A DNA stretch of 64,000 nt from Anaerolineae bacterium (GTDB lineage Bacteria; Chloroflexota; Anaerolineae; DTPP01), in NCBI GenBank assembly GCA_049969295.1, contig JBMFPD010000001.1:332-64331 (forward strand). The letters run 5' to 3'. The notes under the pieces are model-generated. The model ran no database searches and had not been told where the DNA came from. It worked only from the letters and a program-made list of their open reading frames with translations. This document shows positions 33,284 through 42,352 of this stretch, piece after piece. The position numbers and the translations under genes are program-made. Within the stretch, counting starts at the first letter, position 1. The number at the start of each line of letters is the position of its first letter.

Positions 33284-33949
33284 TCACAAGGTGATATCCA
33301 GAAGCCCCTCGCCGATCTTGCGCAGCGTCTCCGCGGACAGCTGGCTCAGGAGCATGGCCACCCGGATGTAAAGCACGTTGGAGGGCTGCGCGATGAACGC
33401 CCGGACGTCCTCCGGCATCTGGGCCAGGCTGGAGAGGGGGGCCTCCCCCTGCTCCTCCTGGGGGAGGAGGTCCGGGTCCACGAAATGAGAGAGGGAAAGG
33501 CCGATGGCCTCGGCCAGGCGTTCCAGGTCCGGGAGGGGGAGGTCCTCCTCGCCGAACTCCACGGCAGCCAGGCGCTCTGGGGGGTAGCCGACGACCTCCG
33601 CGCACTCCCTGAGGGTCTTCCCCCGGGCGAGCCTGGCCTGGCGCAAGAGGACGCCGATCATCTTGCGGCGGATGGCCAGGTACTCCCGGACGTCGGCGGG
33701 GATGGAGGCTTGGGGGACGGGCTTGTCGTCCAGGAGGCTGGCGATGGGCACGCCGTAGATGCGGCTCAGGAGCTCCAACTGGGGCAGGGAGGGGGAGGCG
33801 TCGCCCCGCTCGCAGCGGGCGAGGAGGGAAGGGGAAAGGCCAGCGCGTGCGGCGGCTTCCTTGTGGGAGAGGTTGGCGGCCAGCCGGGCCCTCCGCAGGA
33901 GCCGGCCCAGGAGTTCACGGCGGGTTGGCGGAACACACGGCTCAGTCAT
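33284..33949 (-). CDS. Transcriptional regulator with two tandem XRE-type helix-turn-helix domains
   Basis: Two HTH_XRE-like segments (LRRARLAANLSHKEAAARAGLSPSLLARCERG and LRQARLARGKTLRECAEVVGY...). Lies 18 nt upstream of the kinase. Confidence 0.7.
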   Translation of the reverse strand: MTEPCVPPTRRELLGRLLRRARLAANLSHKEAAARAGLSPSLLARCERGDASPSLPQLELLSRIYGVPIASLLDDKPVPQASIPADVREYLAIRRKMIGVLLRQARLARGKTLRECAEVVGYPPERLAAVEFGEEDLPLPDLERLAEAIGLSLSHFVDPDLLPQEEQGEAPLSSLAQMPEDVRAFIAQPSNVLYIRVAMLLSQLSAETLRKIGEGLLDITL

Positions 33950-34152
33950 GGCGGCCCTCCCTCTGCGCCTCCCAGCCTTCGGAACAATCGTGCATTGTCA
34001 TTCTATCTGCTTTTATACGCCGTGTCAAGCAAGGGGGTTGTTGGTTGCGGTTGCACCTTGTGTTGGTGAGTCGGGGACACGGGAAGACCGACCTCTCCCA
34101 TCCCCCCATCCCCTTCCCTCCGCATCGGGGAGGGAAGGGGGTGCCGCAACTG

Positions 34153-34200
34153 CTCTTCCCGGCGCAGGGGGCACGCCAGAAGGCGTGCTCTACGGTCCTG
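34153..34200 (+). repeat. Conserved intergenic element, copy 3 (core only)
   Basis: CTCTTCCCGGCGCAGGGGGCACGCCAGAAGGCGTGCTCTACGGTCCTG. Confidence 0.65.
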
Positions 34201-34233
34201 CGGTCCGAGGGTGGCTTGCCCGCGCTCCGCAAT

Positions 34234-34262
34234 TTGACATTCTGCGGGAATGATGCTATCCT
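34234..34262 (+). promoter_or_regulatory. Sigma-70-like promoter of the aromatic operon (-35 TTGACA, 17-nt spacer, -10 TATCCT)
   Basis: Read directly from the sequence; lies 34 nt downstream of element copy 3. Confidence 0.5.
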
Positions 34263-34293
34263 TGGGGCGAAACCGCCCTGGAGCGAGGACCGG

Positions 34294-34458
34294 ATGTCCC
34301 GTACGATCGGAGTTGAGGTGCATACAGCAGGTCCTGTTCCGGCAGGCTGCTCCGGCCGGCAGGGCGGTGATGCGCGCCGCGCGGTGCTGCAGGGCTACTA
34401 CTATTATTTTGCCTTCCTCCCCTCCTGCCCGGGCTCCGCGCAGCGTGCAGGGCCGTAG
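34294..34458 (+). CDS. Putative attenuator leader peptide (54 aa), MSRTIGVEVHTAGPVPAGCSGRQGGDARRAVLQGYYYYFAFLPSCPGSAQRAGP, with a Tyr-Tyr-Tyr-Tyr-Phe-Ala-Phe run
   Basis: ATG preceded by GAGG. The run uses the codons tac tac tat tat ttt, which are rare in this GC-rich genome. The ORF lies between the promoter and the terminator hairpin. Confidence 0.6.
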   Translation: MSRTIGVEVHTAGPVPAGCSGRQGGDARRAVLQGYYYYFAFLPSCPGSAQRAGP

Positions 34459-34494
34459 GCCCGCCCAGCGTACAGCGGTTAGCAGACTCAGGAA

Positions 34495-34530
34495 GCGTGG
34501 AGCCCAAAGGGGCCCCACGCTTCTTCTTTT
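34495..34530 (+). terminator. Attenuator terminator hairpin (GCGTGGAGCCC...GGGGCCCCACGC followed by TTCTTCTTTT) directly upstream of the aroH RBS
   Basis: GC stem plus U-tract. Its 5' arm is complementary (10 Watson-Crick pairs plus one G-U) to GGGCTCCGCGC at 34431..34441, which would act as an antiterminator. Confidence 0.6.
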
Positions 34531-34545
34531 GTGTGGAGGTCCACT

Positions 34546-34935
34546 ATGGCATGTCGGGGTGTGCGCGGCGCCACCACTGTGGAAGCGGACGAGCGAGAGG
34601 CCATCCTCGCCGCCACCGGGGAACTCCTGCAGGCCATGGCTCAGGCCAACGGCATCCAGCCGGAGGACCTGGCGGCGGTCCTCTTCACCTGCACGCCGGA
34701 CCTGACGGCGGCCTTCCCCGCCGAAGCAGCGCGGGGCCTGGGCTGGACCCACGTCCCCCTTTTGGACGCGCAGGAGGTCCCCGTGCCCAGGTCTCTCCCG
34801 CGCTGCATCCGCATCCTCATGCTCTGGAACACCGAGCGCCCCCAGCAGGAAATCCGCCACGTCTACCTGCGCGGGGCCCGGTCTTTGCGCCCCGACCTGG
34901 CCCAACACCCGGACAAGACGCCCCCAGGGCGTTGA
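34546..34935 (+). CDS. aroH: Chorismate mutase, AroH class
   Basis: [15 protein letters not shown]... matches B. subtilis-type AroH. The RBS is GGAGG. Confidence 0.85.
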
Positions 34936-34957
34936 ATTCTGAAAGAAGGAGGAAGAG

Positions 34958-35977
34958 ATGATCATCGTCATGAAGCGAGGAGCCACCCCAGAGGAACTCC
35001 AGGCCGTCGTCCGCCAGGTGGAGGAACTGGGCTTCCGCACCCACGTCTCCCAGGGGGAGGAGCGCACCATCGTCGGCCTTATCGGCGATGAACGCCCCCT
35101 GATGGAGAACCTCCACCGCTTTGAACTGATGGAAGGTGTGGAGCGGGTCCTGCCCATCCTCCGCCCCTACAAACTGGCCTCGCGGGAGTTCCACCCTGAG
35201 GACACCCAGATCCAGGTGAACGGCCAGACCATCGGAGGCCGCCGCGTGGTGGTCATCGCCGGGCCCTGTGCCGTGGAAAGCCGGGAACAGATCCTGGAGG
35301 CGGCCTGGGCGGTGCGGGAGGCCGGTGCGTCCTTCCTGCGGGGCGGGGCCTTCAAGCCCCGCACCTCCCCCTACTCCTTCCAGGGGCTGGGCGAGGAGGG
35401 CCTGGAACTCCTGGCCGAGGCGCGGGAAGCGACGGGCCTGGGCATTGTCACCGAGGTGATGGCACCGGAGCAAGTCCCATTGGTGGCGCGCTACGCGGAT
35501 ATCCTCCAGGTGGGCACCCGCAACATGCAGAACTACAGCCTTCTCCACGCCGTGGGCGAGGCGAAGAAGCCCGTCCTCCTCAAGCGCGGCTGGATGTCCA
35601 CCCTGGAGGAGTGGCTGATGGCCGCCGAGTACATCCTCTCTCACAGCAACCATCAGGTCATCCTCTGCGAACGGGGCATCCGCACTTTTGAGACCTACAC
35701 CCGCAACACCCTGGACATCAACGCCGTCCCTGCCCTGAAGCAACTGACCCACCTGCCGGTCATGGTGGACCCTAGCCACGGGACCGGCCGCTGGGAACTG
35801 GTGACCCCCGTGGCCCGCGCCGCGGTGGCGGCCGGGGCCGATGGCCTCCTGGTGGAGGTCCACCCGCACCCGGAGGCGGCCTTCTCCGATGGGGCCCAGT
35901 CCCTCAAGCCCTGTCGCTTCAAGGCCCTGATGGAGGAAGTACGGCGGGTGGCCGAGGCTGTGGGGCGGGAGGTCTAG
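34958..35977 (+). CDS. aroF: 3-deoxy-7-phosphoheptulonate (DAHP) synthase, type I-beta, with an N-terminal regulatory domain
   Basis: KDO8P/DAHP synthase family core (..[18 protein letters not shown]..) preceded by an ~70-aa N-terminal extension. Confidence 0.85.
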
Positions 35978-35990
35978 GAGGAAGGGCTCC

Positions 35991-36854
35991 ATGTCGCTTT
36001 CCTCTGCAAGGGTCGCCGTGGTGGGCCTGGGCCTTATGGGGGGCTCCCTGGCCGCCGCCCTCACACGGCGCAGGGCCTGCGCCGAGGTGGTGGGCGTCGC
36101 CCGCCGCCCCGAGACCTGCCAGCAGGCGGAAGCCGAAGGCTTCGTCCACCGGGCCACCACCGACCTCCAGACCGGGGTCGCCGGGGCCGACCTGGTGGTC
36201 CTGGCCACGCCGGTGCGGACCATCCTGCGCCTGCTGCCGCGGCTGGGCACGCTCCTCGCGCCTGGGACCGTGGTCCTGGACCTGGGGAGCACCAAAGCCG
36301 CCATCTACAGGGCGATGGAGGACCTGCCGGCCGGCCTCCAGCCGGTCGGCGGCCACCCTATGTGCGGAAAGGAAGTCCACGGCCTGGAGGCGGCGACGCC
36401 GGACCTGTACGAGGGTGCTTCCTTCGTCCTCACCCCGCTCCCGCGCACCAGCGCCGAAGCCCTGGCCCTGGCGCGCGGCCTGGCGCGGGCCGTGGGGGCG
36501 TGGCCCCTGGAGATGTGCCCCGACCGGCACGACCGACTGGTGGCCGCCGTGAGCCACCTCCCGTACATCCTGGCGGTGGTCCTCACCCGGCTGGTGGCCC
36601 GCGCCGGCCAGGAGGATGCCGAGGTGTGGGACCTGGCGGCCTCTGGCTTCCGCGATACGTCCCGCCTGGCCGCAAGCGACGTCACCATGATGCTGGACAT
36701 CCTCCTCACCAACCAGGCCCCCCTCCGCGCGCTCCTGGGGAGCGCGGTGGCGGAACTGGAGCGGATCGCTGCCCTTCTGGAGCAAGGGGACGAGGAGCGG
36801 TTGCGCGAGGTGCTGGCCGCGGCCCAGGCGGCCCGGAAGGAGTGGAAAGGATGA
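35991..36854 (+). CDS. tyrA: Prephenate/arogenate dehydrogenase
   Basis: Rossmann motif VAVVGLGLMGGSLA and a PDH domain. Confidence 0.85.
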   Translation: MSLSSARVAVVGLGLMGGSLAAALTRRRACAEVVGVARRPETCQQAEAEGFVHRATTDLQTGVAGADLVVLATPVRTILRLLPRLGTLLAPGTVVLDLGSTKAAIYRAMEDLPAGLQPVGGHPMCGKEVHGLEAATPDLYEGASFVLTPLPRTSAEALALARGLARAVGAWPLEMCPDRHDRLVAAVSHLPYILAVVLTRLVARAGQEDAEVWDLAASGFRDTSRLAASDVTMMLDILLTNQAPLRALLGSAVAELERIAALLEQGDEERLREVLAAAQAARKEWKG

Positions 36855-38158
36855 CTGCGCCGTTGCACATCCATCAGGCCGAGAGGGGATTGCGGGGTGC
36901 GGCCCGCGTCCCGGCCGACAAGTCCATCACCCACCGCGGCCTCCTCCTGGGGGCCGTGGCCACGGGGGAGAGCCGCCTGGCCAACCCCTCCCCTGCCGGC
37001 GACTGCGCCGCGACGCTGGCTTGCCTCCAGGCCTTGGGGGTGCGGGTGGAGCAAACGCCTGGCGAGTGGCGCATCCGGGGCGTGGGGCTGCGGGGCCTCC
37101 AGGAGCCGGCGGATGCCCTGGACTGCTGCCGCTCCGGGACCACCATGCGCCTCCTGGCCGGGCTCCTAGCCGGCCAGGAGGGGCTCTTCGTCCTGCGGGG
37201 CGACCCCCAACTGCACCGCCGCCCCATGGGGCGCATCGTGGAGCCCCTGCGGGCCATGGGCGCGCAGGTCACGGGCCGGGCCGGTGGAAGATTTCCACCC
37301 CTGGTCGTCCAGGGAGGCCCCCTGCAGGGGACGGCCCACCACCTCGCCGTGGCCAGCGCCCAGGTCAAGTCCTGCCTCCTCCTGGCAGGCCTCCTGGCCG
37401 AGGGGACGACGACCGTGCACTCGCCGGCCCCCAGCCGGGATCACACCGAGCGCCTCCTCCGGGCCGCGGGCGTGCCCCTTTGCGAGGACGGGGCGACGGT
37501 GGCCGTGGAAGGCCCCGTGGAGGCCCTCGCCCCCCTGGACCTCGCCGTGCCCGGCGACTTCTCCTCGGCGGCTTTCCTCCTGGTGGCGGCCTGCCTCGTG
37601 CCGGGGAGCGAGGTCGTCCTCCAAGGGGTGGGCCTGAACCCCACCCGCACCGGGCTCCTCCACGTCCTGCACCAGATGGGGGCCTCGGTGGAGGTGCGGA
37701 TGGACGAAGCCTCCAACGCGGGCGAACCTGCCGGCGACCTCCTCGTGCGGTGGAGCCCCCTGCGCGGGGCTGAAGTGGGCGGCGAGACCATCCCGGCCCT
37801 CATAGACGAGGTCCCCATCCTGGCTGTGGCCGCCACCCAGGCCGAGGGGGTGACGGTGGTCCGGGACGCGGAGGACCTCCGCCACAAGGAAAGCGACCGC
37901 ATCGCCGCCACGGTCCAGGAACTGCGGAAACTCGGGGCCCGTATAGAGGAGCGGCCCGATGGCTTCGTCGTGGAGGGGCCGGCGCACCTGCGTGGGGCGC
38001 GGGTGGACAGCCACGGCGACCACCGCCTGGCCCTGGCCCTGGCCGTGGCCGGCCTGGTGGCCGAAGGCGAGACGGTGGTGGAGGGGTTTGACCGCGCCGC
38101 GGACTCTTTCCCCGGCTTCCCGGAGGTGCTGGCTGGTCTGCTGGGGAAAGCGAGGTAA
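36851..38158 (+). CDS. aroA: 3-phosphoshikimate 1-carboxyvinyltransferase (EPSP synthase)
   Basis: MTAPLHIHQAE...KSITHRGLLLGA...; the start overlaps the tyrA stop in ATGA. The track ORF has a spurious 5' extension. Confidence 0.9.
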   Translation: MTAPLHIHQAERGLRGAARVPADKSITHRGLLLGAVATGESRLANPSPAGDCAATLACLQALGVRVEQTPGEWRIRGVGLRGLQEPADALDCCRSGTTMRLLAGLLAGQEGLFVLRGDPQLHRRPMGRIVEPLRAMGAQVTGRAGGRFPPLVVQGGPLQGTAHHLAVASAQVKSCLLLAGLLAEGTTTVHSPAPSRDHTERLLRAAGVPLCEDGATVAVEGPVEALAPLDLAVPGDFSSAAFLLVAACLVPGSEVVLQGVGLNPTRTGLLHVLHQMGASVEVRMDEASNAGEPAGDLLVRWSPLRGAEVGGETIPALIDEVPILAVAATQAEGVTVVRDAEDLRHKESDRIAATVQELRKLGARIEERPDGFVVEGPAHLRGARVDSHGDHRLALALAVAGLVAEGETVVEGFDRAADSFPGFPEVLAGLLGKAR

Positions 38159-38162
38159 TGCT

Positions 38163-39026
38163 ATGGAGATCAAAGGCACCACCCAGGTGGTGGGCCTCCT
38201 GGGGTGGCCCGTGGCCCACAGCGTCTCGCCCCAGATGCACAACGCAGCCTTCGCCGCCCTGGGGCTGGACTGGTGCTACATCCCCCTGCCCGTGCCCCCG
38301 GACGCGCTCGGGGATGCGGTGCGGGGCCTGCGGGCCCTGGGCCTGCGGGGAGCCAACGTCACCGTGCCCCACAAGGAGGCCGTGATCCCCTTCCTGGATG
38401 GCCTGGGTCCCGAGGCCCGGGCGGTCGGGGCGACGAACACGCTGGTGGTGCGGGAGGATAGCCGCCTGGAGGGGCATAACACCGACGTGGAGGGCGTGCG
38501 GGCCGCCCTGGAGGAGGCTGGCTGCCCGATCCCGGGGATCCGCGCCCTGGTCCTGGGGGCAGGCGGGGCGGCCCGGGCCGCGGCCTACGCCCTGCTCCAG
38601 GGCGGCGCGGAGGTGCAGGTTCTGGCCCGCCGGCCGGCCCAGGCCGAGGCCCTGGCGCGGGACATGGAACGGGTGCTCCCCGGAAGCCGCATCGTCCCGG
38701 GGCCCCTTGCGCCGGAGAATCTGGTCCGGGCGGCCGGGGAGGTGGACCTCCTCGTCCAGAGCACACCGGTCGGCATGTGGCCCCACGGCGACGGCTCCCT
38801 CTGGCCAGAGGAGGAACCCATCCCCCCGCACCTGTGGGTCTTTGACCTGGTCTACCGGCCGAGGGAGACGCGCCTCCTCCGCCAGGCCAGGGCAGGCGGG
38901 GCGCGGACCATTGAGGGGGCCCGGATGCTCATCCATCAGGCGGCGGCCAGTTTCCGGCTTTGGACTGGGGCCGAACCGCCCCTGGACGTGATGGCCAGAG
39001 CGTGCTGGGCCGCCCTGGGGACGTAG
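38163..39026 (+). CDS. aroE: Shikimate dehydrogenase
   Basis: MEIKGTTQVVGLLGWPVAHSVSPQMHNAAF... Confidence 0.88.
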   Translation: MEIKGTTQVVGLLGWPVAHSVSPQMHNAAFAALGLDWCYIPLPVPPDALGDAVRGLRALGLRGANVTVPHKEAVIPFLDGLGPEARAVGATNTLVVREDSRLEGHNTDVEGVRAALEEAGCPIPGIRALVLGAGGAARAAAYALLQGGAEVQVLARRPAQAEALARDMERVLPGSRIVPGPLAPENLVRAAGEVDLLVQSTPVGMWPHGDGSLWPEEEPIPPHLWVFDLVYRPRETRLLRQARAGGARTIEGARMLIHQAAASFRLWTGAEPPLDVMARACWAALGT

Positions 39027-39093
39027 GAAGACCTCATCCCGGCCCCCTTCCCCTTCTCCGGTTCGGAGAGAGGAAGGGGGCTGGTGCTTGACC

Positions 39094-39208
39094 CCAGAGG
39101 ATTCTGATCATATCTGATCATACGGACTCCTGAGCACCCCTCCCCCAGCCCCCGCATGCGGGGAGGGGGCCCAGGGGGTGGGGTTGGGGGGCGCACAGCC
39201 GTGCGTCC
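39094..39208. repeat. GC-rich hairpin repeat, family copy A (GAGGATTCTGA...CTGAGCACCCCTCCCCC...GGGGAGGGGG...GCGCACAGCCGTGCG)
   Basis: Nested poly-C/poly-G inverted repeats plus a GCGCACGGCCGTGCGC-type palindrome. Paralogous copies lie at 43898 and 58296. A separate hairpin CCCTTCCCCTTCTCC/GGAGAGAGGAAGGGGG lies at 39043..39080. Confidence 0.7.
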
Positions 39209-39226
39209 TATTTGCAGGAGGCGACC

Positions 39227-40342
39227 ATGTTGCGCATGTTGACGGCAGGCGAATCCCACGGACCCTGCCTGGTGGCCATCGTGGACGGCCTCCCGGCGGG
39301 CATCCCTCTGGACGAAGAGGCCCTCAACCGGGACCTGGCCCGCCGGCAGGTGGGCTATGGCCGCGGGGGGCGCATGCAGATAGAGCGCGACCGGGCGGAG
39401 ATCCTCTCCGGCGTGGCCGGCGGCCGGACCACTGGCGCGCCCCTGGCTCTCCAGATCCGCAACCGGGACTGGGAGAACTGGCGCGGCCGGGAGGTCCCCC
39501 CCTGGACCGTGCCCAGGCCCGGCCACGTGGACTGGGCCGGGGCCCGCAAGTACGGCCTGGAGGACCTGCGCTGGGTGGCGGAACGGGCCAGCGCCCGGGA
39601 GACGGCGGCGCGGGTGGCCGCGGGCGCGGTGGCCCGGGCACTCCTTTCCGCCGTGGGTCTCGTCGTCGGGAGTTACGTGGAAGCCATCGGCCCGGTGCGG
39701 GCAGACCTCCCGCCGGGGGACTGGCTGGAACGGGCCCAGGCCGCGGAGGCTTCCGACGTGCGCTGCCCGGACCCCGAGGCCGCCGGGAGGATGCGCCAGG
39801 CCATTGACGAGGCCCGGGCCGCGGGCGAGAGCCTGGGGGGTCTCTTCGTGGTCTTCGCCGTGGGGGTGCCAGTGGGCCTGGGCTCCTACATCCAGTGGGA
39901 CCGCCGCCTGGACGCCCGCCTGGCCCACGCTCTCATGAGCATCCCGGCCATCAAAGGGGTGGAGATCGGCGACGCCTTCGCCAATGCGGCACGGCCGGGG
40001 ACGGAGGTCCACGATGCCTTCGTCCGGGATGCCGGTGGCCGGTGGCGCCGGGCCACGAACCGCGCCGGCGGCCTGGAAGGGGGCGTGAGCAACGGGGAGC
40101 CCATCTGGGCGCGGGCGGCCATGAAGCCCATCCCCACCACGGGTAGGCCCCTGCCCAGTTACGACGTGCGCACAGGGGAGCCAGCTCCTGCGCCCTACCA
40201 CCGCGCCGATGTCTGCGCCGTGCCCGCCGCCAGCGTGGTGGGCGAGGCCATGTGCTGCTGGGTCCTGGCCGACGCCCTCCTGGAACGGTACGGTGGCGAT
40301 ACGTTGGCGCGCATCCAGGAGGGGGTGGAACGTGATCGCTGA
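39227..40342 (+). CDS. aroC: Chorismate synthase
   Basis: MLRMLTAGESHGP... with the RBS AGGAGG; the track ORF was trimmed by 5 codons. Confidence 0.9.
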   Translation: MLRMLTAGESHGPCLVAIVDGLPAGIPLDEEALNRDLARRQVGYGRGGRMQIERDRAEILSGVAGGRTTGAPLALQIRNRDWENWRGREVPPWTVPRPGHVDWAGARKYGLEDLRWVAERASARETAARVAAGAVARALLSAVGLVVGSYVEAIGPVRADLPPGDWLERAQAAEASDVRCPDPEAAGRMRQAIDEARAAGESLGGLFVVFAVGVPVGLGSYIQWDRRLDARLAHALMSIPAIKGVEIGDAFANAARPGTEVHDAFVRDAGGRWRRATNRAGGLEGGVSNGEPIWARAAMKPIPTTGRPLPSYDVRTGEPAPAPYHRADVCAVPAASVVGEAMCCWVLADALLERYGGDTLARIQEGVERDR

Positions 40343-41924
40343 AGGGCGCAACCTCGTCCTGACCGGCCTCATGGGGACGGGCAAGAGCCGCGTTGGGCGG
40401 CTGCTGGCCGCCGCGCTGGGCCGGGAGTTCGCCGATACCGACGCCCTCATCGTCCAGCGGGAGGGACGCTCCATCGCCGAGATCTTCGCCCACTCCGGCG
40501 AGCCTTACTTCCGCCAGGTGGAACTCCAGGTATGCCGGGAACTGGGAGCGCGGCGCGACCTGGTCATCGCCACGGGAGGCGGCGCGCTGGTGCACGAGGC
40601 CGGGCGGCAGGCCCTGGGGCGGAACGGCCTCGTCGTCTGCCTGCGGGGAGCCCCCAGGACCCTTGCCCAGCGCGTGGTGCAGGACGAAGAGACCCGCCCC
40701 CTCCTCCTGGGGAAGGACCCGGAGGCGGCTCTGGAGGCCCTCTGGCGGGCGCGGCGCAACGCCTACGCCCTGGCCCCTCTCCAGGTGGCCACCGACGGCC
40801 GCACTCCCGAGGAGGTGTGCCAGGCCATCCTGGATGCCCTCCAGCCCCGCCTGGACCGCCTGGAGCAGGTGCCCGTCTCGGTGCCCGGCGAGAAGGGATA
40901 CGCCGTCTGGCTGGGGGCCGGGGCGCTACGCCTCACGCCCCAGATGGTCCCCCTGCCGAAGGGCCGCCTCGCGGCTCTGGTGTGGGATGCCCACATCCCG
41001 GAGAGCCTGCCGGAGGATGTCCGCCGGGCCTGGGAGGAGGCCGGGTGCCGCGTGGCCTCCATCCCCCTGGAGGTGACGGAGGAGACCAAGACCCTGGCGA
41101 CGGCCGCCGCGCTGTACGACCGGTTCCTGGAGGCGCGCCTGGATCGGGGGACCCCGGTCCTCATCCTGGGGGGCGGGGTGACGACGGACCTGGTGGGGTT
41201 TGCCGCGGCCACCTTCATGCGGGGTCTCCCCACCTTCACCCTGCCCACCACCCTCCTGGGCGCAGTGGACGCCAGCGTGGGCGGCAAGACTGGCGTCAAC
41301 CTGCCCCAGGGGAAGAACCTGGTGGGCGTCGTCTGGCCGCCCAGGGCCGTGGCCGTGGACCCGGTGGCCCTCTACACCCTGCCTGACGAGGAAATCCGCG
41401 CCGGCCTGGCCGAGACAGTCAAGGCGGGGGTGATCGGCTCGCCCGCGCTCTTCACCCACCTGGAAACGAACGGCCTGGAGGACCTCCCCTGGATCGTGGC
41501 CGAGGCGGTGCGGGTCAAGGCCCGCGTCGTGAGCGAAGACCCCTACGAGCGGGGACCCCGTGCCTATCTGAACCTGGGGCACACCTTCGGCCACGCACTG
41601 GAGGTCCTCTCGGGGTACCGCCTCCCCCACGGACGGGCGGTGGCGATGGGGATGGTCGTGGCGGCGCGCCTGGGCGAGGTCCTGGGCCTGGTGGATGCGG
41701 CTTTCACGGCGCGCCTTGTGGCCCTCATGGAGGCCCTGGGCCTTCCCACCCGTCCTCCCGACCTCCCCTTTGACGAGGTGTGGCAGGCCATGCACGCCGA
41801 CAAGAAGAAGCAGGCCGGCCGGCTGCGTTTCGTGGTGCCGGCCGGCATCGGGAAGGTCGTCCTGCGGGACGACGTGACGGACGCCCAGGTGCGGGAAGCC
41901 TGGGAAAGGAGCATGACGCCATGA
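40332..41924 (+). CDS. aroKB: Bifunctional shikimate kinase / 3-dehydroquinate synthase (AroK-AroB fusion)
   Basis: The N-terminus has the P-loop GLMGTGKS (shikimate kinase); the C-terminal ~360 aa are the DHQ synthase fold (..[15 protein letters not shown]..). GTG start overlapping the aroC stop. Confidence 0.85.
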
Positions 41925-42352
41925 CCCATCGCATCCTGGTCCTGCAAGGCCCGAACCTGAACCTCCTGGGGACCCGGGAGCCGGAGATCTACGGCACCAT
42001 GACGCTGGAGGACATCCACCGGGCCATGGAAGAGTGGGCGCGGCCGCGCGGGGTGGAGTTGCGCTTCGTGCAGTCCAACCACGAGGGCGACCTGGTGGAC
42101 GCCCTGCACGAGGCCCGGGGATGGGCCACGGGGGTCATCTGCAACCCCGGGGCCTACGCCCACTACGGCCTTGCCCTGCGGGATGCCATCGCTGCCGTGG
42201 GCCTGCCCACGGTGGAGGTGCACCTCTCCAACGTCTACGCTCGGGAACCGTTCCGGCGGCGGTCGGTCCTCGCGCCGGTCTGCCGGGGGGTTATCGCCGG
42301 GCTGGGCTGGCGGGGGTACCTCCTGGCCCTGGAGGCCCTGGCTGGGGGCTGA
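41921..42352 (+). CDS. aroQ: 3-dehydroquinate dehydratase type II
   Basis: [25 protein letters not shown]...; the start overlaps the aroKB stop in ATGA. Confidence 0.9.

Follow-up and report, generated by a model that had tools for sequence, protein, structure and literature searches.

We analysed a 64,000-nucleotide stretch of DNA from an Anaerolineae bacterium (Chloroflexota; contig JBMFPD010000001.1, positions 332 to 64,331), referred to below as the window, in which an aromatic amino acid operon (34546-42352) is preceded by a short leader; coordinates are those of the window, and features are on the + strand unless stated otherwise. According to Pfam, the operon comprises aroH, encoding an AroH-type chorismate mutase (CM_1), a gene for 3-deoxy-D-arabino-heptulosonate 7-phosphate (DAHP) synthase with a ferredoxin-like domain, tyrA (prephenate dehydrogenase), aroA (5-enolpyruvylshikimate 3-phosphate synthase), aroE (shikimate dehydrogenase), aroC (chorismate synthase), a fused aroK-aroB (shikimate kinase/3-dehydroquinate synthase) and aroQ (type II dehydroquinase), followed after a gap by a phosphoribosyl pyrophosphate synthetase gene. 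In agreement with the preliminary description of this locus, which had read the region in front of aroH as a Tyr/Phe leader-peptide attenuator of an operon with tyrA and without pheA, prephenate dehydratase (Pfam PDT) was not detected anywhere in the 64-kb window.

The leader begins with a sigma-70-type promoter at 34234-34262, consisting of TTGACA (34234-34239), a 17-nt spacer and the extended -10 element TGcTATCCT (-10 hexamer at 34257-34262); it matches the consensus at 10 of 12 positions in addition to the extended -10 TG, a quality expected 0.0 times in shuffled sequence, and would place the start of transcription near 34269. Between the -10 box and aroH lies, as had been described, an open reading frame (ORF) of 54 codons (34294-34458; ATG at 34294, TAG at 34456-34458), with a GGAG Shine-Dalgarno (SD) sequence at 34280-34283, 10 nt upstream of its ATG. 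Its translation, MSRTIGVEVHTAGPVPAGCSGRQGGDARRAVLQGYYYYFAFLPSCPGSAQRAGP, contains the segment QGYYYYFAF, encoded in its aromatic part (YYYYFAF, 34396-34416) by TAC TAC TAT TAT (34396-34407) and TTT GCC TTC (34408-34416), and the run of four tyrosines is unique among the six-frame translations of the whole window. The assertion that TAT and TTT are rare codons here also held: across nine genes nearby, 4 of 40 Tyr codons are TAT and 9 of 59 Phe codons are TTT.

Downstream of the ORF, regions 3 and 4 form an intrinsic terminator (34491-34533), in which a stem of 34491-34505 with 34510-34524 closes the loop AAAG and is followed by a U-rich tail at 34525-34533. The 14-bp hairpin (34491-34524), interrupted by one A.C mismatch, has a folding energy of -25.9 kcal/mol (ViennaRNA); its inner arms GCGTGGAGCCC (34495-34505) and GGGGCCCCACGC (34509-34520) flank AAA, and the tail reads UCUUUUGUG. 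The automatic terminator scan caught the sub-hairpin 34507-34525 alone, and the full stem is that given by ViennaRNA. The leader stop is indeed close to the terminator, at a distance to its GCGTGG that we correct from 37 to 36 nt. As previously recognised, the terminator abuts the aroH SD sequence (GGAGG, 34535-34539; ATG at 34546), the stem ending 10 nt and the U-tail 1-2 nt upstream of it; no promoter-like site was found between terminator and aroH, a gap too short for a separate aroH promoter.

The leader RNA can adopt mutually exclusive pairings. Region 1 (34371-34395), the 3' end of which lies at the first Tyr codon, is complementary to region 2 (34427-34449), and the core of region 2, GGGCUCCGCGC (34431-34441), can instead pair with the 5' arm of the terminator, GCGUGGAGCCC (34495-34505), over 11 bp including one G.U. 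This 2:3 duplex, the antiterminator that had been proposed at 34431-34441, has an energy of -25.2 kcal/mol and beats 200 of 200 dinucleotide shuffles. Folded in both conformations, as had been suggested, the free full-length leader forms a 5' domain (34272-34368), a long 1:2 hairpin (34371-34395 with 34427-34449) that holds the Tyr/Phe regulatory codons in its loop, and the 3:4 terminator, while a transcript ending at 34506, before region 4, forms the 2:3 helix with or without a masked stalled ribosome. The energies are about -36 to -37 kcal/mol for 1:2, about -25 to -27 kcal/mol for 2:3 and about -27 kcal/mol for 3:4. Region 2 begins 14 nt past the last Phe codon, and the leader stop lies 14 nt past the region-2 core. 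A ribosome is taken to cover about -12/-15 to +15 nt around its P site. On these distances, a ribosome holding a Tyr or Phe codon in its A site would mask at least the 3' half of region 1 and would end at or before 34426, leaving region 2 free.

The same arrangement was found in relatives. An identical record of the window AroH was not found by exact look-up, and homologues were used instead, among which the window groups with Chloroflexota/Anaerolineae. The comparison set comprised 80 loci from species-representative genomes and 11 contigs with closer AroH homologues, and the seven closest distinct loci, with 70-91% AroH identity, served as close relatives. All seven retain both promoter hexamers, the GGAG SD sequence, an open frame of 52-62 codons and the terminator, and the gene order of the window operon recurs in relatives. 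The aromatic run is kept as YYYYF(A/F)F, and region 2 is invariant (CCCGGGCUCCGCGC), its core being unchanged across the clade of eight sequences made up of the window and its relatives. The N-terminal 30-40 residues of the leader peptide are essentially unrelated between sub-clades and the frame is never broken, the only conserved portions of the peptide being the aromatic run and a C-terminal stretch overlapping region 2. Within the run, one relative (L082) has an extra in-frame TAT that extends it to YYYYY, and two others (L083 and L081) show synonymous TAC-to-TAT and TTT-to-TTC changes. To judge from these sequences, this is the pattern of an ORF that is translated and that matters only through its regulatory codons and the RNA segments.

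Beyond this clade, an nhmmer search of 83 loci with the window leader returned the three closest relatives and two marginal matches and nothing else, and more distant members were recognised by their peptide and terminator signature, not by sequence similarity. In a scan of the 450-500 nt upstream of aroH for aromatic-rich short ORFs at all loci, a dense Tyr/Phe(/Trp) run in a short ORF ~125-220 nt upstream of aroH was present at 36 of 47 non-Planctomycetota loci, among them nearly all loci of Anaerolineae, Chloroflexia (including a Roseiflexus metagenome-assembled genome, MAG) and Ardenticatenaceae. Examples of the runs are VGYYYYYYATC, RPYYYYYFSS, FFFAYYFYAYFYG, STYYFWFWYFASS and MNTSYRFFFGYYFYYG, and the leader of the Roseiflexus sp. 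MAG (L062) reads MQSRSTYYFWFWYFASS. A threshold of at least 6 aromatic residues per stop-free 10-codon window, exceeded or equalled by 0.49% of 4100 control windows from the same loci, was reached upstream of aroH at 31 of the 47 non-Planctomycetota loci and at none of the 32 Planctomycetota loci; given the difference between this background and the frequency in the aroH upstream regions, a chance run is excluded.

Forty leader-bearing loci were taken forward for analysis of start codon, terminator, helices and geometry. An in-frame start codon is present in all 40 leaders (ATG in 29), the start/SD score exceeds that of both other frames in 38, and a hairpin with a U-tail follows 18-59 nt past the leader stop in every case. 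Far-upstream GTG and TTG starts, proposed by the automatic picker for the window, L055 and a few others, were rejected, as promoter positions favour the proximal ATG. Across the family, the median distances are 1 nt from the 3' end of region 1 to the first aromatic codon, 18 nt from the last aromatic codon to the start of region 2, 9 nt from the end of region 2 to the stop, 27 nt from the stop to the terminator and 37 nt from the stem to aroH. The first three of these medians (1, 18 and 9 nt) fit the positions of a stalled as opposed to a completing ribosome, the geometry that distinguishes this class of attenuator. The runs contain 135 Tyr, 105 Phe and 11 Trp residues in total, interspersed mainly with Ala and Gly, and are encoded by 73 TAT, 62 TAC, 85 TTT and 20 TTC codons. 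Compared with aroH itself, U-ending codons are enriched in the runs, for Phe (TTT, 81% vs 55%, p = 1e-4) and for Tyr (TAT, 54% vs 37%, p = 0.06).

Support for the helices was sought in the same 40 loci. Region 1 resembles region 3 (GGCGUGRRG, AGCGUGGAGC) and region 2 resembles region 4 (GCUYCRCGCC, ...CCACGCU), a likeness that is expected because three pairings must coexist. The 2:3 duplex reached p <= 0.05 against dinucleotide shuffles in 18 of the 40 loci, where 2 were expected, with a mean z of -1.46. In a swap test, each locus's own terminator arm and own region 2 paired better than did swapped-in arms (z = -4.05), and the own partner was likewise better for 1:2 (z = -5.3). Between the GCGUGGAGC and GCGCAGAGC classes, partner tables show changes of U.G/U-A to C-G and of G-C to A-U, with the reservation that the partners were picked by energy minimisation and lean towards pairing. 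Covariation was read from an unfitted MAFFT alignment of 30 leaders, in which the 1:2 and 3:4 helices together are 73.8% paired, compared to 67.4 +/- 1.0% in shuffled and 36-56% in slid alignments, and contain 73 doubly changed cells, compared to 40 in shuffled alignments, a count that none of 500 shuffles reached. All 11 pairs of the 1:2 columns are compensatory, as are 7 of the 11 pairs in the 3:4 columns, where pairing amounts to 87%. For the 2:3 helix the same alignment gives 74.1% pairing, compared to 28-60% when slid; both of its strands are highly conserved, and the window clade is shifted in register by 2 nt relative to the majority owing to a (CG)n repeat. As far as sequence comparison can tell, the 1:2 and 3:4 helices are supported by covariation and the 2:3 helix by conserved, matched complementarity.

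The window leader thus combines the features by which attenuators of this class are recognised: (i) a short ORF with a start codon and a ribosome binding site downstream of a promoter; (ii) a cluster of codons for the amino acid concerned; (iii) an intrinsic terminator; and (iv) a 2:3 pairing that competes with 1:2. On these grounds, we interpret it as a classical ribosome-mediated transcription attenuator of the aroH operon, probably sensing charged tRNA-Tyr and, secondarily, tRNA-Phe, and we put the probability of this reading at roughly 0.8; the attenuator interpretation of the preliminary description is supported overall, both by the anatomy of the window and by conservation in seven close and 36 more distant Chloroflexota loci. 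The operon encodes the pathway from DAHP synthase to chorismate together with chorismate mutase and TyrA, i.e., the steps leading to Tyr and Phe precursors, which matches the codons of the leader. We infer that the leader ORF is translated and that stalling, kinetic coupling and a response to the amino acids ensue, in the following manner. Transcription would start near 34269 and a ribosome would load at the GGAG/AUG (34280/34294). When Tyr- and Phe-tRNA are plentiful, the ribosome would reach the stop at 34456 after passing YYYYFAF and region 2, the latter would be occupied or recaptured by region 1 (1:2, about -36 kcal/mol), the 3:4 terminator would fold, and RNA polymerase would stop at 34525-34533, just upstream of the aroH SD sequence. 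When they are scarce, the ribosome would stall at 34396-34416 and mask region 1, and the freed region 2 would pair with region 3 through its 11-bp core before region 4 is made, so that the terminator is blocked and the operon transcribed.

Several points weigh against this interpretation, the basis of which is wholly computational. In an equilibrium fold of the full-length RNA with a masked stalled ribosome the terminator persists, which requires a kinetic switch of the kind assumed in the classical model. At the other end of the leader, coordinates and the standard footprint suggest that a ribosome on the stop codon would reach back to ~34438-34441, i.e., over ~1-4 nt of the 11-nt region-2 core. 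Of the two positions that had been proposed, the stalled ribosome that frees region 2 agrees with the coordinates, but the ribosome that covers region 2 from the stop would touch its edge only, and when Tyr/Phe supply is sufficient, passage of the ribosome and renewed folding of the stronger 1:2 hairpin are the likelier basis of termination. The leader SD sequence and AUG are buried in helix P0, which closes the 5' domain (34272-34280 with 34360-34368), and this could hinder translation. The 2:3 duplex is individually no better than shuffles in 22 of the 40 loci, its covariation in the MAFFT alignment is weak and not significant (5 doubly changed cells, a number that 73 of 500 shuffles attain), and regions 2 and 3, being invariant within the window clade, are uninformative on 2:3 covariation there. 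The alignment of relatives that had been called for bore out the conservation of the aromatic run and stems and the covariation of 1:2 and 3:4, but little covariation of 2:3. Finally, the folding energy of the whole leader is unexceptional (z = -1.54) and was excluded from the evidence.

The 5' domain, as delimited in the minimum-free-energy fold, encloses the leader SD sequence and start codon, and in seven relatives its closing helix P0 shows compensatory A-U/G-C and C-G/U-A changes (RNAalifold). Once fully transcribed, P0 may limit re-initiation and restrict leader translation to the first ribosome loaded. A structured, covarying domain of this kind would also suit a sensor other than the ribosome, as would the terminator 5' arm motif GCGUGGAGC, which is unusually conserved across distant loci and contains UGGA. 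T-boxes, which read out tRNA charging, are common in Chloroflexota; both they and the trp RNA-binding attenuation protein (TRAP) of the Bacillus aroFBH-trp supraoperon resemble the proposed system in controlling aromatic genes of Gram-positive-type lineages through terminator/antiterminator choice. A real switch set by a tRNA in T-box-like fashion, by a small-molecule riboswitch or by a TRAP-like protein bound to U-A/U-Y triplet repeats, with the ORF incidental, is nevertheless very unlikely. The whole window had no match in Rfam 15 at gathering scores; over 33940-34600 at E <= 10 there were only chance miRNA-like matches and no T-box (RF00230), Phe, Trp or Leu leader; and 17 related loci gave, at gathering scores, one unrelated tRNA and nothing else. 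The UGGA in the terminator 5' arm is fully paired in the 2:3 helix, unlike the bulge of a T-box, (G/U)AG repeats are absent, and a fixed RNA repeat is lacking, since Ala, Gly and Trp codons break up the runs. That the ORF is incidental is hard to reconcile with a frame kept through indels, a start codon in 40 of 40 leaders, a stop at a median of 9 nt past region 2 and synonymous third-position variation within the run, and the sensor, as far as the sequences indicate, is the translated ORF.

Another explanation, to which we give very little credence, is that the main effect of the leader ORF and hairpins falls on aroH translation or mRNA stability and that they do not cause premature transcription termination. 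In the window the U-tail ends 1-2 nt before the aroH SD sequence, part of which can be taken into a weak GUGG/CCAC hairpin; across the family, however, a U-tail follows the hairpin in 40 of 40 loci, at a distance from aroH of 13-84 nt (up to 157 nt in L081) that often leaves it well clear of the SD sequence, and a constant U-tail at a variable distance fits a transcription terminator and not an SD-sequestering element. Least probable of all is a reading in which the ORF is a small-protein gene in its own right, complete with terminator, or has arisen by chance, and aroH is transcribed from another promoter. ORFs of 52-62 amino acids are annotated as genes in some metagenome contigs, and the 80-157 nt between terminator and aroH in some relatives would leave room for a promoter, but this distance is less than 40 nt in the window and many relatives, the peptide outside the aromatic run is unconserved even at 70-90% AroH identity and has no Pfam match, and the leader is strictly linked to aroH across Chloroflexota classes.

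The composition of the leaders was also compared with the content of the operons. In all leader-bearing loci with enough sequence a DAHP synthase gene follows aroH, and tyrA and aroA are present in nearly all. In 13 loci (L002, L006, L007, L008, L012, L017, L027, L030, L047, L056, L063, L070 and L075) pheA (Pfam PDT) lies between aroH and the DAHP synthase gene, while it is absent from the window clade. The proportion of Tyr among Tyr and Phe residues of the leader is 0.60 in operons without pheA and 0.51 in those with it, and the most Tyr-dominated leaders (window clade, L018, L059 and L064) all precede operons without pheA. The argument that a Tyr-biased leader is logical in front of an operon with tyrA and no pheA therefore has the trend in its favour, but not statistical significance (p = 0.16), and we regard it as plausible and unproven. 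Two further loci on short contigs, L009 and L020, also have a prephenate dehydratase gene. An APH-family phosphotransferase gene also lies between aroH and the DAHP synthase gene in L047, and two tandem DAHP synthase genes stand behind aroH in L056, L065 and L074.

Our full-text literature searches, within the library that could be searched, found no description of a leader-peptide attenuator in Chloroflexota. The further claim that attenuation of such an operon by a Tyr leader is undescribed was overstated, as leader-peptide control of a comparable operon in Corynebacterium glutamicum has been published: an RNA-seq study (PMC4046766) predicted the aroR leader, which carries Phe-Tyr-Phe and precedes the aroF DAHP synthase operon, and a later source, citing Neshat et al. 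2014, states that aroR attenuates this operon in response to Phe and not Tyr (PMC11802643). The two systems share a short leader ORF with adjacent Phe/Tyr codons and a shikimate-entry operon, and ribosome stalling, which increases read-through in C. glutamicum, would do so in the window as well. Functionally, C. glutamicum aroR-aroF is the nearest precedent, and with it control of this kind is already on record. The systems differ in that aroR has only Phe-Tyr-Phe, whereas the window leader has four consecutive Tyr and two Phe codons, and in that the first gene is aroF in this actinobacterium, whereas in the window an AroH-type chorismate mutase comes first and the remaining operon content is different; the two are likened by architecture, and sequence relatedness is not expected. 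In Escherichia coli, pheL-pheA (Rfam Phe_leader) and pheM-pheST likewise combine a run of aromatic codons, 1:2/2:3/3:4 pairings and an intrinsic terminator (PMC11802643), pheL-pheA moreover in front of a chorismate mutase gene. The E. coli pheL peptide has 15 codons, with Phe as its only regulatory residue, whereas the window leader has 54 codons, is Tyr-dominated and includes a long structured N-terminal coding part. The E. coli tyrA-aroF operon is controlled by the TyrR repressor and not by attenuation. The textbook scheme is that of E. coli trpL, with regulatory codons beside region 1, a 2:3 antiterminator and a 3:4 terminator. The mechanism proposed for the window leader is the same, but trpL senses another amino acid and has its stop between regions 1 and 2, whereas the window leader stops 14 nt past the region-2 core.

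The mechanism, then, is known, and an aromatic leader that attenuates a DAHP synthase operon has been described; what is new is the Chloroflexota leader family, which in the window is Tyr-dominated. More speculatively, this may be the first family of attenuators dominated by Tyr codons, old and spread over much of Chloroflexota (Anaerolineae, Chloroflexia including Roseiflexus, and Ardenticatenaceae), with a Y/F/W mix tuned to operon content (tyrA only, or pheA and tyrA) and with P0, a stop-codon hairpin and leaderless variants, both taken up below, playing mechanistic roles unlike those of the enterobacterial paradigms; we consider this wider proposal doubtful as a whole. If it is true, the family would lend itself to the study of transcription-translation coupling, as a natural system within a deep-branching phylum. 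The attenuator reading by itself would assign a concrete regulatory mechanism to the main aromatic amino acid operon of a large, mostly uncultured phylum, and a Tyr-rich leader would join the short list of amino acids sensed by leader peptides. The ~40 diverse examples could seed an RNA family and improve the annotation of leader ORFs of 25-60 codons, which are currently missed or annotated as hypothetical proteins. As the mechanism is textbook, the value lies in cataloguing and comparison and not in a new concept.

Some members of the family depart from the common architecture. In three loci (L026, L074 and L080) the leader has no SD sequence and a perfect TTGACA-17-TA(A/G)AAT promoter places its -10 box 10-11 nt before the ATG, suggesting that these leader peptides are probably made from leaderless or nearly leaderless mRNA; the stretch concerned is given as about 60 nt upstream of the leader ATG. 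Two Chloroflexota loci (L061 and L065) reach 4 of 10 aromatic residues, below the threshold, yet in both a strong terminator like those of the family precedes aroH, e.g., AGCGUAGAGAGG; the L061 peptide reads SSFSSYWFTSPHMAWSLRTV. The leader family is probably wider than the 40 loci counted.

Small additional hairpins were also observed. In the window, GGGCC-GUA-GGCCC (34449-34461) has a loop that includes two bases of the leader stop codon and itself lies within the loop of the antiterminator, which it would shorten; relatives carry changed, hairpin-compatible sequences, such as GGGAGG-CCCUAA-CCUCCC in L084, an assessment made by eye and unscored. A different element, UAUGC(C)-NN(NN)-(G)GCAU followed by CAGGC, occurs just past the aromatic run in L002, L007, L008 and L021, with variants in L003 and L009, where it sits inside the 1:2 loop and gives rise to a peptide that recurs among these loci, YAYA(P/K/Q/S)ASG; a function as a pause or nucleation hairpin is possible.

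Upstream of the leader, a 15-bp GC-rich inverted repeat, CATCCCCTTCCCTCC / GGAGGGAAGGGGGTG, with a 7-nt loop and without a U-tail, occupies 34107-34143, ~90 nt upstream of the aro -35 element and between the divergent promoters of a helix-turn-helix (HTH) gene and the aro leader. Possible readings of the repeat are an operator, a bidirectional hairpin and an element resembling repetitive extragenic palindromic sequences; assignment of the repeat to a repeat family was rejected, as it is present in a single copy in the window. In L081, the closest relative (91% AroH identity), a ~130-nt insertion between terminator and aroH (about 1560-1690 of that locus) is rich in CCCCTCCCC / GGGGGAGG palindromes styled like the repeat at 34107-34143, and such palindromes may represent a mobile palindromic element of the window lineage. 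The product of the divergent gene (33284-33949, - strand) contains two HTH domains of the XRE type (Pfam HTH_31/HTH_3), and the gene has a near-consensus promoter-like site, TTGACA-17-TAGAAT, at 34000-34028 (- strand); the upstream neighbour gene is not the same in L083.

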